DNA of 64,000 bases from Candidatus Dormibacter sp. (GTDB lineage Bacteria; Chloroflexota; Dormibacteria; CF-121), in the NCBI GenBank assembly GCA_039922495.1, contig JBDTEO010000015.1, forward strand, positions 844 through 64,843, read 5' to 3'. Below are positions 10,133 through 12,555 of this stretch, in pieces (the stretch's first letter is position 1; every line of letters begins with the position of its first letter). The position numbers and the translations under genes are program-made. The notes under the pieces were generated by a model. The model saw only the letters and a program-made list of their open reading frames with translations. It was not told where the DNA came from and made no database searches.

Positions 10133-12319
10133 GTGAGTTCAAGCCGCTCAACTGTCGAGCTAGAGTCGTCAGCGGCCGCGACCGCCCTTTCCGTGTGGGA
10201 TCAGCTCGCCGAGCGAGCGAGTCCGGGCGACTACCGTCCAATGCTTCGGTCCGATCTCACCTGGGTTCGGATGAAGACCCGCCATGGTTTGCCGAACATC
10301 ATGCTGGCGGACCGACCCCGCAAGTACCTCCGGCTGAGCGAGCGCGACGACCAGCTGGCCCAGCTGATGGACGGCAGCCGGCGGGTTGCCGACCTGGTGG
10401 TCGAATACTTCCGCCGCTACGGCAGCTTCGGCTTCCGACAGGTCACCGACCTCGTGACCCTCCTTCGGCAGGCCGGCTTTCTCACCGACCCGCCTCGCGA
10501 CATCTATAAGGACCTCGGCGAGGAGTTGAATCCGGCCGCGCCGGTGAAGCAGCGGCGCTGGATGGAAGGGAGCGGGCTGCGGATGAAGTTTCCCGTCCGC
10601 GGCATCGACGGACTCGTGACCCGATACCACGACACGGTCGGGCGCTTTATCTTCACGCCGGTGTTCCTCTGGGCCAGCGTGGTCGTCACCATCGTCGGGC
10701 TCGGCGCCTTTGTGCGGGAGCTGCTCACGGGCCGGGACCCCTTTGCGCCGATCGCCGGCTCCGGGCTGATCGGCGTTCTGGCCCTGGTGATCGCCTACTA
10801 CTTCGTGATCTTCATCCACGAGAGTGCCCACGCGCTCACCTGCAAGCACTATGGCCGGATGGTTCCCAAGGGCGGCTTCATGCTCTATTACCTGATGCCG
10901 GCGTTTTACGTCGACGTCACCGACTCCTGGCTCGAGCCGTGGCGCCGCCGGATCGCGATCTTCTGGGCCGGGCCCTACTCCGGGTTCATCCTGGCCGGCG
11001 CGAGTGCCCTCGGGGCCACCGCGCTGGGCACCGGGCTTATCGGCACCGTCCTCTTCAAGCTGGCCGTTGCCGCCTACCTGACGAACCTGCTGAACCTGAT
11101 GCCGCTTCTGCTCTGGGACGGGTACTGGATTCTCGAGCAATGGCTGGAGATCCCCGACCTTCGGGTCCGGGCGCTCACCTTTATCAAGGGGCCGCTATGG
11201 AGCCAGCTCTGGACGCGTCGGCGGCTCACCGGTCGTGAGACCTTCTTCGCGATCTTTGGCCTGCTGTCGGCGGCATATTCGTTTGCTTCGATCTTCCTCG
11301 CCTACCTGTACTGGCGGCGCCGGCTGGGGCCGATCATCCGGCCGCTCTGGCTGACCCCGGGCCTGCTGTCCAAGGTGATCGCGGTCGGGCTGGTCGCGGC
11401 GATCGGCATCCCGCTCAGCATGAAATTTGGACGGCGCCTGTGGGGCTACCGTCGGGTCGTCATGAGCGCGCCGGCCGCGGCGAGGAAGGCGATCTTCACC
11501 ATCCGGATGAGCGACCGCCTGCGCCTGCTGGAAGGGCTGGCCTTCTTGCGGAGCCTGCCGCAGAAGAGCCTCGAACGCCTTGCCGGGAGCGCGAAGGTCC
11601 GAGAAATCCCGGCCGGCGCGACCGTCGTGCGGCAGGGAGACCGGGGCGACGAGTTCTTCATCATCGCGGCCGGCCAGGCTGCCCTCCTGGTCCGGGAACA
11701 AAACGAGGATCGGATTGTCGGCAAGATGACCCTCGGGGACTTCTTTGGCGAACGCGCGCTGCTCAAGCGCGGCGTCCGCGAGGCCACCGTCAAGGCCGAA
11801 ACGCCGCTCAAGCTCCTGGTGTTCCCTTCGAAGGCGTTCTGGAGTGAATTGGCCGGGCCGGTCGAATGGGAGTCTCGGGTGCGTGGCGCACTCGAGGAGC
11901 GGGACCGGCTGCGGGCGCTGCCGATCTTTGCCGATACGGCGCCGCGGCAGTTGGATCTGCTGGCGGTTAAGCTCCAGGTCGAGCGCGTTGCGCCTGGCCA
12001 GGTGCTGGTCAAGCAGGGTGATCCGGGCGACTCGTTCTATATCGTCCGCGAGGGGACTGTCGAGGTGATCATGCGAAAGGAGCGGAGCCGCCGCCGCGTC
12101 GCCACGCTGAAGCCCGGAGACTTCTTTGGGGAGATCGCGTTGCTTCGCGATACGCCGCGAAACGCCACAGTCCAGGGGCTGGAAGCCGGCTCGGTCTGGA
12201 GGCTCGAGCGGCAGGATTTTCGTGACCTGCTCGGGCGTTATCTCGACCTGGAGGGGCAGATCGCCGGCATCGCCGCTTCCCGGACGCCCCGGGGCCATTC
12301 CATGCGAGGGGCGGCCTGA
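10133..12319 (+). CDS. polytopic M50-like zinc metalloprotease fused to two C-terminal cyclic-nucleotide-binding domains
   Basis: HESAH (HExxH) inside a TM helix plus an NLLNLMPLLLWDGYW (NxxPxxxLDG-like) motif. Two cNMP domains (FFIIAAG...FGERALL and FYIVREG...FGEIALL). Confidence 0.8.
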   Translation: MSSSRSTVELESSAAATALSVWDQLAERASPGDYRPMLRSDLTWVRMKTRHGLPNIMLADRPRKYLRLSERDDQLAQLMDGSRRVADLVVEYFRRYGSFGFRQVTDLVTLLRQAGFLTDPPRDIYKDLGEELNPAAPVKQRRWMEGSGLRMKFPVRGIDGLVTRYHDTVGRFIFTPVFLWASVVVTIVGLGAFVRELLTGRDPFAPIAGSGLIGVLALVIAYYFVIFIHESAHALTCKHYGRMVPKGGFMLYYLMPAFYVDVTDSWLEPWRRRIAIFWAGPYSGFILAGASALGATALGTGLIGTVLFKLAVAAYLTNLLNLMPLLLWDGYWILEQWLEIPDLRVRALTFIKGPLWSQLWTRRRLTGRETFFAIFGLLSAAYSFASIFLAYLYWRRRLGPIIRPLWLTPGLLSKVIAVGLVAAIGIPLSMKFGRRLWGYRRVVMSAPAAARKAIFTIRMSDRLRLLEGLAFLRSLPQKSLERLAGSAKVREIPAGATVVRQGDRGDEFFIIAAGQAALLVREQNEDRIVGKMTLGDFFGERALLKRGVREATVKAETPLKLLVFPSKAFWSELAGPVEWESRVRGALEERDRLRALPIFADTAPRQLDLLAVKLQVERVAPGQVLVKQGDPGDSFYIVREGTVEVIMRKERSRRRVATLKPGDFFGEIALLRDTPRNATVQGLEAGSVWRLERQDFRDLLGRYLDLEGQIAGIAASRTPRGHSMRGAA

Positions 12320-12555
12320 TGCAGTGCTGGATCTGCGCCTCGCCCGCCAATGGGACCTGCCGGTTCTGCGGGCGGGCGGTCTGCCGCGAGGACGCCAAGA
12401 CCCATCCATTCGTGCTCGAGGTCTATCCCAGCAATGGCAACCTTTACGGCCTGGCGGTCGAAGACGCCCTGCATTGCGGTGTCTGCAAGCCGCGATCGGA
12501 ACCGGTCCTGATGGACTTTCTCAACCAGCCGAAGCCGCCGGTGAGTGACAAATGA
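12319..12555 (+). CDS. small Cys-rich zinc-ribbon protein (DUF2180-like)
   Basis: 78 aa, CWIC...CRFC...C...HCGVC. Start ATG overlaps the upstream TGA by 1 nt (TGATG). Confidence 0.5.
   Translation: MQCWICASPANGTCRFCGRAVCREDAKTHPFVLEVYPSNGNLYGLAVEDALHCGVCKPRSEPVLMDFLNQPKPPVSDK

Follow-up and report, generated by a model that had tools for sequence, protein, structure and literature searches.

A 64,000-nucleotide stretch of a Candidatus Dormibacter sp. genome (contig JBDTEO010000015.1 of assembly GCA_039922495.1; about 65% GC; hereafter the window) carries a three-gene operon. Its first two genes encode a site-2 protease fused to two cyclic-nucleotide-binding domains and a 78-residue, seven-cysteine protein that resembles a Zn ribbon, and its third encodes a precursor-like repeat peptide. 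This suggests that the operon cuts ribosomal peptides under the control of a signal, in a manner that has not been described. The reading that we favor, and to which we give about an even chance of being right, is that the protease is a cyclic AMP (cAMP)-gated intramembrane leader peptidase for the repeat peptide, dependent on a recognition element of the kind found for peptides that ribosomes synthesize and that are modified post-translationally (RiPPs), and that the Zn-ribbon-like protein is its obligate accessory subunit. The architecture, the conservation of catalytic and ligand residues, the operon structure and the cross-lineage synteny are established, and from them we infer which peptide would be the substrate, where it would be cut, how a cyclic nucleotide would gate the cut and what the Zn-ribbon-like protein would do.

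A site-2 protease with a predicted RiPP recognition element

A genome scan with a profile of the RiPP recognition element (RRE) and site-2 protease (S2P) returned 38 loci, which were mapped together with three earlier ones; 22 are of Dormibacterota type (L001-L022) and 19 are from Anaerolineae (L023-L041). The features discussed below are collected in Table 1. The first gene product, of 728 residues, is settled as a protease because HExxH and NxxPxxxxDG are both present in all 117 full-length homologues, because Pfam Peptidase_M50 (PF02163) matches all 41 aligned homologues at E <= 0.1 (best E 9.7e-13), and because a profile of residues 1-445 aligns with the solved enzymes MjS2P (3b4r, E 5.4e-4) and SpoIVFB (8vjl, E 0.059), D329 falling on the third-ligand Asp (D148) of the former. 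Hydropathy marks six segments (172-196, 208-232, 284-305, 305-328, 369-393 and 404-432). HESAH sits at the end of the predicted second transmembrane (TM) helix (about 208-232), and NLLNLMPLLLWDGYW (about residues 318-332) lies in the fourth hydrophobic segment, where N321-x2-P-x4-D329-G330 has the S2P spacing. A sequence-only reading of this DNA had proposed an M50/site-2-like metalloprotease with HESAH inside a TM helix and a second S2P motif downstream, and on both counts it was right. Its proviso that the HExxH region should align with the M50 metal ligands, the third Asp included, is borne out too.

Ahead of this core, the AlphaFold2 (AF2) model of the full protease (pLDDT 77.9) predicts three strands (43-48, 54-60 and 64-68) and three helices (70-78, 85-96 and 101-113) within residues 43-113 (pLDDT 85-91), a topology that, in the model, is the PqqD/RRE fold. 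The best NCBIfam match is NF041824, the daptide biosynthesis intramembrane metalloprotease (E 2.2e-52; residues 58-398 on profile positions 21-346), and the HExxH-to-DG core also matches NF058609 (YydH/LiaK; E 1.5e-10, 41.2 bits vs a cutoff of 225); both are RiPP leader peptidase families. Furthermore, Pfam PqqD matches the Anaerolineae homologue of L040 at E 1.2e-4. The protease is thus a predicted member of the RiPP-processing RRE-S2P branch, to which the daptide protease MpaP belongs, and not of the branch that cleaves anti-sigma factors in regulated intramembrane proteolysis (RIP).

MpaP is reported to be an RRE fused to a site-2 protease and to remove the daptide leader (Ren et al. 2023, bioRxiv 10.1101/2023.03.08.531785). 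The window protein shares with it an N-terminal RRE, an M50/site-2 core with HExxH and DG, and an adjoining small precursor-like peptide. However, a daptide protease proper was rejected: the match to NF041824 scores 178.5 bits, the daptide enzymes (the DUF-RRE protein MpaB, the dehydrogenase, the aminotransferase and the methyltransferase) are absent from the window genes scanned and from the genes called in L001, and the window peptide does not end in Thr (its C-terminus is ...KLSME). Nor do the passages of the daptide paper that were consulted mention a tandem cNMP-binding module or a Zn-ribbon partner. YydH/LiaK is likewise a small M50-type membrane protease dedicated to RiPP precursor processing; however, its profile has 246 positions and covers the HExxH-to-DG core only, with no room for an RRE or cyclic-nucleotide-binding (CNB) domains, and its partner enzyme is a radical-SAM epimerase, which differs from the operon here.

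A tandem cNMP-binding module

Two stretches of the protease match Pfam cNMP_binding (PF00027; E 9e-46), and each holds a phosphate-binding cassette (PBC), FGERALL at residues 538-544 and FGEIALL at 665-671, followed by an Arg-x-Ala-Thr element; the earlier call of two complete domains with these cassettes stands. Two PBCs are present in 116 of the 117 full-length homologues. Across 41 sequences the Gly-Glu and Arg-x-Ala of both PBCs are invariant, as are F538, G539, E540, R549 and A551 of domain A. The best fold matches of the module are tandem CNB structures of PKA-R (Foldseek E 8.5e-20), and it keeps the ligand-contacting residues. It also matches TIGR03896 at E 1e-21 (77.7 bits, below the subfamily cutoff of 161), a tandem-cNMP family that NCBIfam names bacteriocin-type transport-associated. 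Given six TM segments, the RRE and the CNB tandem face the same compartment, presumably the cytoplasm.

It might be argued that these domains sense no cyclic nucleotide and are a structural, dimerization or other-ligand module, the protease being constitutive or controlled by the Zn-ribbon-like protein alone. Structural matches include Trypanosoma PKA-R with nucleosides and NtcA with 2-oxoglutarate, and kinetoplastid PKA-R is cAMP-independent. Moreover, the Anaerolineae homologues have no CNB domain, and a cyclase lies near the protease in only 4 of 23 loci. However, the canonical FGE-x-AL ... R-x-A-(T/S) is invariant in both PBCs of the 41 sequences, and a distant lineage retains the fusion, colinear at 33% identity and likewise beside a Crp gene. 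We consider this alternative quite improbable.

The Zn-ribbon-like protein

The cysteines of the 78-residue protein are spaced as C3-x2-C6, C14-x2-C17, C22 and H52-C53-x2-C56. All seven (C3, C6, C14, C17, C22, C53 and C56) and the CRFCGRA core are invariant in 31 aligned homologues, and the C-terminal tail CKPxPEPvxMxFL stays conserved not only in Dormibacterota but also in Anaerolineae and more distant homologues. An exhaustive profile search among 1.84 billion proteins gave a family of 149 representative clusters, nearly all of 65-110 residues. It has no Pfam or NCBIfam family, with only a weak match to C5HCH (20.2 bits vs a cutoff of 26.3), and the earlier suggestion of DUF2180 was dropped, as this family gave no Pfam match even at E <= 10 and NCBIfam gave none either. 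An AF2 model (pLDDT 75.8) gave no significant PDB match, the best being the C5HCH cross-brace finger of NSD3 (E 0.9). From its Cys pattern alone, the protein may be Zn-ribbon-like or cross-brace-like.

Partner or substrate, and possibly anti-sigma-like: these were the roles that the sequence-only reading had offered. A zinc-binding anti-sigma factor (ZAS) is not supported, as the protein has H52-C53-x2-C56 in place of H-x3-C-x2-C and no TM segment; in addition, the window and the neighbourhoods of L001 and L003, the Dormibacterota loci scanned for sigma factors, yielded none. Across loci its identity to the window protein is 76-96%, vs 60-86% for the protease, and this slower evolution argues for a partner or subunit rather than a substrate. 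A RiPP precursor was rejected on the same ground. Synteny and slow evolution thus favor the role of partner over that of substrate; the protein is probably an obligate accessory subunit.

In the strongest version of the substrate idea, the Zn-ribbon-like protein is a pro-protein whose PEPxxMxFL tail docks on the RRE before being clipped, and the repeat peptide is an unrelated passenger. The wide conservation of the tail fits this idea, as does its alternating hydrophobic pattern, that of a strand able to join the RRE sheet, and the gene is retained in loci without an NHLP peptide. However, the protein is conserved over its full length, and more so than the protease, which is the reverse of what a leader/core pattern would show; translational coupling in a stoichiometric manner better suits a subunit; and in both phyla the protease is followed by Os1348 peptides. 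We regard this version as very unlikely.

The third gene encodes a precursor-like repeat peptide

In the 124-residue product of the third gene, the first ~48 residues match NF038399 (Os1348 NHLP), and Pfam Frankia_peptide scores 20.9; the syntenic orthologue of L001 reaches 40.5 bits with NF038399, and the Anaerolineae neighbours 58-65 bits. Among 54 homologous clusters, the junction after this domain has the consensus G(I/M)AG..DDRE(V/A)RR(T/M)MAAS and is conserved along with the leader, and the sequence after MAAS is a hypervariable short tandem-repeat array, mostly of 5-residue period. The repeat units across loci include NEVAS, GTVDV, AGSAE, AGSTD, SADAG, AQTAE and TAESG, as well as ANTA, ASTLE, DAASQI, STVESQ, ARNT, NSAEAL and ARLTERAA, and the tails are free of Cys. 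A conserved S(T/H)LTS or SATE closes many of the tails. Identity to the window peptide is 51-85% in the leader and 22-48% in the tail. This combination, a leader that is conserved and a core that varies, is what marks RiPP precursors, and the peptide would be the likeliest substrate of the protease, with the junction as the putative cleavage site. It had been listed earlier as one candidate substrate among others; it now ranks first, and the anti-sigma-like alternative is not supported.

At five loci the peptide slot holds a short Lys/Arg-rich open reading frame (ORF) instead (Table 1; L021 is the L003 contig fetched again and is not counted separately). These ORFs follow the Zn-ribbon gene, with a similar strong ribosome-binding site (RBS) in four of the five, and the conserved terminator hairpin follows them in L003, L015, L018 and L020, the four loci checked for RBS and terminator. 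Examples begin MAEKKKAK..., MAEKKKAKSTAKAGEKRESDRR... and MAE...KRIATKRAASKR(VASKR)n, and the VASKR repeats mirror the NEVAS repeats of the window with opposite charge.

Operon structure

The GTG start of the protease gene lies five bases 3' of AGGAGGG (10121-10127). The final A of its TGA (12317-12319) is the first base of the Zn-ribbon ATG, as the sequence-only reading had noted, and this 1-nt TGATG overlap recurs in 18 of the 22 Dormibacterota loci, the remaining four having gaps of 1-3 nt. An 89-nt spacer with a strong RBS separates the Zn-ribbon stop from the peptide start, and the terminator hairpin, GGGGCAGCC...GGCTGCCC, recurs 3' of the third gene in other loci. The promoter-like site, the strong RBSs, the TGATG overlap and the terminator define a three-gene operon, of which the protease and Zn-ribbon genes are the first two.

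The DNA motif over the Zn-ribbon stop codon, in its general form AGTGAC-nAA-nGACACA...TGTG, is also found at the equivalent position in L004-L012, L018 and L020. It is kept whether read as Ser-Asp-Lys-stop or as Glu-stop, which points to a function at the nucleic-acid level, as a putative protein-binding site, internal promoter element or hairpin. For the last of these, RNAalifold gave -4.06 kcal/mol with one covarying pair, insufficient for the claim of an RNA element.

Table 1. Features of the operon and its surroundings (window positions, except for the ORFs of other loci, which carry their locus names)
Feature	Position	Strand	Basis
Sigma-70-like promoter candidate TTGACG-17-CATAGT	10084..10112	+	consensus scan; 3 sites vs 0.5 expected in shuffles
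RRE / site-2 (M50) protease / tandem cNMP-binding fusion gene	10133..12319	+	>163 homologous clusters, identical architecture
Predicted N-terminal PqqD-like RRE, about residues 40-115	10250..10477	+	AF2 model, NF041824 match
Six-TM site-2 protease core, about residues 168-434	10634..11434	+	hydropathy; profile alignment to 3b4r, 8vjl
HESAH zinc-binding/catalytic motif, residues 229-233	10817..10831	+	aligns to HELGH of MjS2P and SpoIVFB
NLMPLLLWDG with third zinc ligand D329, residues 321-330	11093..11122	+	aligns to NLIPAFPMDG of MjS2P
cNMP-binding domain A, about residues 470-594, PBC FGERALLKRGVREAT	11540..11914	+	Pfam cNMP_binding
cNMP-binding domain B, about residues 597-716, PBC FGEIALLRDTPRNAT	11921..12280	+	
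78-residue seven-Cys Zn-ribbon-like gene	12319..12555	+	ORF list; ATG overlaps protease TGA
Conserved DNA motif AGTGAC-AA-TGACACA...TGTGTC...GTCGCT over Zn-ribbon stop codon	12544..12583	+	conserved in 11 loci
124-residue Os1348/NHLP-clan precursor-like peptide gene	12645..13019	+	RBS AAGGAGGTG at 12631-12639
Junction motif DDREVRRTMAAS, residues 54-65, leader domain/repeats boundary, candidate processing site	12804..12839	+	54 homologous clusters
15-bp x 6.1 tandem repeat encoding (NEVAS)n	12906..12997	+	TRF score 121
Intrinsic terminator	13040..13073	+	9-bp stem, 7 GC pairs, then T-run
Crp/Fnr-family cNMP-binding transcription factor, 234 residues	13080..13784	-	cNMP_binding E 3.9e-25; HTH_Crp_2 E 1.8e-15
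Class III adenylate/guanylate cyclase - STAND NTPase - TPR protein, 974 residues	5822..8746	-	Guanylate_cyc E 3e-13 plus AAA/NB-ARC, TPR
Lys/Arg-rich ORFs in peptide slot	L003 8484-8585; L015 3044-3145; L018 8470-8697; L020 about 5806-6048; L042 3769-3888		

Synteny across lineages

All 22 Dormibacterota-type loci have the CNB tandem on the protease and the Zn-ribbon gene immediately 3' of it, and about 15 of the 22 have an NHLP-like peptide as the third gene. The 19 Anaerolineae loci have protease homologues of 500-570 residues with 32-41% identity and no CNB domains, and in 17 of them a Zn-ribbon homologue lies upstream of the protease. The order there is Zn-ribbon, tandem-FHA protein, RRE-S2P and Os1348-family peptides, the last above their family cutoff. 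The two-FHA protein, which stands between the Zn-ribbon and protease genes in L023-L041 (for example L040 4915-5622, Pfam FHA E 7.7e-40), appears from its place to be a putative swapped signal receiver, a tandem FHA in place of the fused tandem cNMP domains. In a third setting, a contig of 71% GC (L042), the Zn-ribbon gene comes after a colinear RRE-S2P-CNBx2 protein, 33% identical over 681 residues, and precedes a small basic ORF and then a Crp gene. Most contigs with distant Zn-ribbon homologues are shorter than 2 kb and uninformative as to context; the exceptions, besides L042, are L048, with the Zn-ribbon gene and then an FHA protein, and L045, with the Zn-ribbon gene and then the N-terminus of an RRE-S2P.

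The pairing of Zn ribbon and RRE-S2P in Dormibacterota, Anaerolineae and the 71%-GC lineage indicates that it is older than, and independent of, the CNB fusion, and the sequence-only reading's proviso that homologous loci should keep the Zn-ribbon gene is borne out in all three settings. Because they are recurrent or invariant across homologues and loci, the HESAH/DG motifs, the PBCs, the TGATG overlap and the seven cysteines exceed what chance would give.

What follows the Anaerolineae peptides is variable. In L027, L035 and L024 an ECF sigma factor comes directly after the peptide gene, and other loci have TIGR03975 RiPP radical-SAM C-methyltransferases (613.8 bits) together with a PrmA-like methyltransferase fused to a leader. 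The PrmA-like methyltransferase of L040 (8315-9136) has at its N-terminus a domain like the Os1348/NHLP leader (Frankia_peptide E 6e-7), which may be a docking module on the enzyme; its gene lies next to those of free Os1348 peptides and of a radical-SAM C-methyltransferase of TIGR03975. The Anaerolineae RRE-S2P proteins (L027 5659-7266; L035 5629-7263; L040 5641-7290) have an extra N-terminus of ~150 residues before the RRE, with repeated Trp motifs (IW..DETL..) and no assigned family.

Neighbouring genes

The window, L042 and 15 of the 22 comparison loci have a Crp-family gene next to the operon. L007-L009 are the closest relatives without an adjacent Crp; their post-peptide slot, normally that of Crp, is taken by a membrane protein of ~377 residues (L007 3273-4406, L008 5850-6977, L009 8909-10042) with a K+-channel-like segment, ...TLVPLSYGD.... 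Upstream of the operon and in the opposite orientation lies the gene of the 974-residue cyclase, a possible source of cyclic nucleotide; cyclase-STAND homologues are found within 6 kb of the protease only in L004, L010 and L011 besides the window, on varying sides. Between it and the operon is a gene (8828-9982, minus strand) for a Cys-rich, Thr/Gln/Asn-rich protein of 384 residues with an N-terminal signal-like segment; this protein has no Pfam or NCBIfam family and no counterpart in related loci. Farther off, a 615-residue protein with four DUF5671 repeats (E 1.2e-54; 17553-19400, minus strand) is unrelated to the operon.

Discussion

We propose that the operon works as follows. The PqqD-like RRE, in the cytoplasm, would capture the precursor peptide, possibly via the Zn-ribbon-like protein, which would be an adaptor or else a gate on the side of the RRE and active site. 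The six-TM core (ligands H229, H233 and D329; catalytic E230) would cut the recruited peptide near the DDREVRRTMAAS junction and so separate the conserved leader from the hypervariable (NEVAS)n tail, which would be released. The cytoplasmic, PKA-R-like tandem cNMP module would make substrate access or activity dependent on cAMP (or cGMP), much as SpoIVFB has its CBS domain and RseP its PDZ gate. With the Crp regulator next to it, and an adenylate cyclase as well in some genomes, the module would be part of a cyclic-nucleotide circuit, and in Anaerolineae the tandem-FHA protein may supply an equivalent phospho-Thr-dependent control.

SpoIVFB, a site-2 protease of Bacillus sporulation, has a C-terminal CBS domain that binds ATP and is held in check by BofA and SpoIVFA. 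It resembles the proposed enzyme in its cytoplasmic C-terminal nucleotide-sensing domain, its non-integral-membrane substrate and its small dedicated partners, features that are established for SpoIVFB and are proposed for the protease here; the metal-ligand motifs align with 8vjl, at marginal similarity. However, a CBS domain is not a CNB tandem, SpoIVFB has no RRE, and its membrane partners are unrelated to the Zn-ribbon-like protein. The operon also resembles NHLP/proteusin systems, in that the peptide leader falls in the NHLP clan (NF038399), the Anaerolineae sister loci have TIGR03975 enzymes and the tandem-cNMP family TIGR03896 carries a name referring to bacteriocin-type transport. Unlike those systems, it has neither a C39-peptidase ABC exporter nor HlyD, the Dormibacterota loci are without a maturase, and Cys-free tandem-repeat tails are not typical proteusin cores.

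Several points weigh against the gated leader peptidase that we favor. Some concern family membership. Among the profiles that the sequence-only reading had expected, cNMP_binding was found and DUF2180 was absent, and Peptidase_M50 reaches only 24.2 bits on the window protein itself, under the gathering cutoff of 27.2. The NF041824 score is below the equivalog cutoff of 300 bits, and the peptide scores 34.5 bits with NF038399, where the cutoff is 40. Pfam PqqD was undetected on the window protein and weak (E 0.029) on 2 of the 41 Dormibacterota homologues; this near absence agrees with the variability for which RRE sequences are known (Ren et al. 2023, bioRxiv 10.1101/2023.03.08.531785). Others concern the substrate. 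NHLP leaders are reported to be structured, protein-like domains, a poor fit to classical strand addition by an RRE. Moreover, the Lys/Arg-rich ORFs of L003, L015, L018, L020 and L042 have no NHLP domain, and the RRE and Zn ribbon are kept at those loci; as five loci swap the NHLP peptide yet keep the RRE, the ligand of the RRE may be something other than the NHLP leader. Among the Dormibacterota loci, neither a modifying enzyme nor an exporter is conserved. The last concern the circuit. Crp is absent from L007-L009, and a canonical CRP box (TGTGA-N6-TCACA, at most 2 mismatches) is absent upstream of the operon in 20 of 23 loci, so there is no evidence that Crp regulates the operon via an E. 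coli-type site.

It would be tempting to see the operon instead as a RIP switch, in which a protease under the control of cAMP or of phospho-Thr and FHA destroys or releases a small cytoplasmic regulator, the NHLP-domain or Zn-ribbon protein, of the neighbouring Crp or ECF sigma factor gene product. A transcription factor is indeed the most constant further neighbour, Crp or, in three Anaerolineae loci, an ECF sigma factor. Sensing modules such as CNB x2 or FHA x2 are typical of signalling proteins, the Dormibacterota loci conserve no maturase or exporter, and SpoIVFB is a generally known precedent of a nucleotide-sensing S2P that cleaves a non-TM regulator. However, the nearest curated protease families are RiPP leader peptidases, genuine RiPP maturases (TIGR03975) occur in some Anaerolineae loci, and the Zn-ribbon-like protein lacks both the ZAS motif and a TM segment. 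Furthermore, hypervariable repeat tails are ill-suited to a regulator that binds a conserved transcription factor, and this factor differs in class between lineages and is missing in L007-L009. We think such a switch unlikely, and continue to favor the gated leader peptidase.

A more general idea, which we put forward tentatively and would not expect to hold in full, is that of a three-part machine, present in at least two phyla and made of an RRE-site-2 protease, a seven-Cys Zn ribbon and an NHLP-like carrier, that uses interchangeable receivers to release repeat peptides or to destroy a regulator on a second-messenger or phospho-Thr cue. The receivers would be the fused tandem cNMP domains in Dormibacterota and the high-GC lineage and the separate tandem-FHA protein in Anaerolineae, and the peptides would be unmodified and hypervariable.

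RRE-fused site-2 leader peptidases are already known (MpaP, 2023). In our literature search we found no paper on a cNMP-fused site-2/M50 protease, on the Zn-ribbon family or on this operon, and no mention of Franean1_4349, and cyclic-nucleotide domains do not come up in the text of the Haft 2010 NHLP paper. Databases label the Dormibacterota proteases as 'cyclic nucleotide-binding domain-containing protein' or 'putative peptide zinc metalloprotease', and the best protein matches come from metagenome-assembled genomes labelled Candidatus Dormibacteraeota.

Site-2 proteases are gated by PDZ domains, as in RseP, or by CBS domains, as in SpoIVFB, and to our knowledge RiPP leader peptidases are generally treated as constitutive. 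The host is a soil bacterium of the Dormibacterota, a phylum that is essentially uncultured; because the components are few and small (three small genes), the hypothesis can be tested by heterologous co-expression all the same. The module defines an unstudied family of seven-Cys proteins of 70-80 residues, apparently a dedicated subunit of these proteases, and a precursor family with fast-evolving tandem-repeat cores of 4-9-residue units and no maturase nearby. If the proposed gating is true, it would be the first case in which a second messenger directly controls an intramembrane protease, and directly controls peptide maturation. The three-part machine, if it exists, would further constitute a new class of signal-gated intramembrane proteolysis that links cAMP signalling to ribosomal peptide processing.

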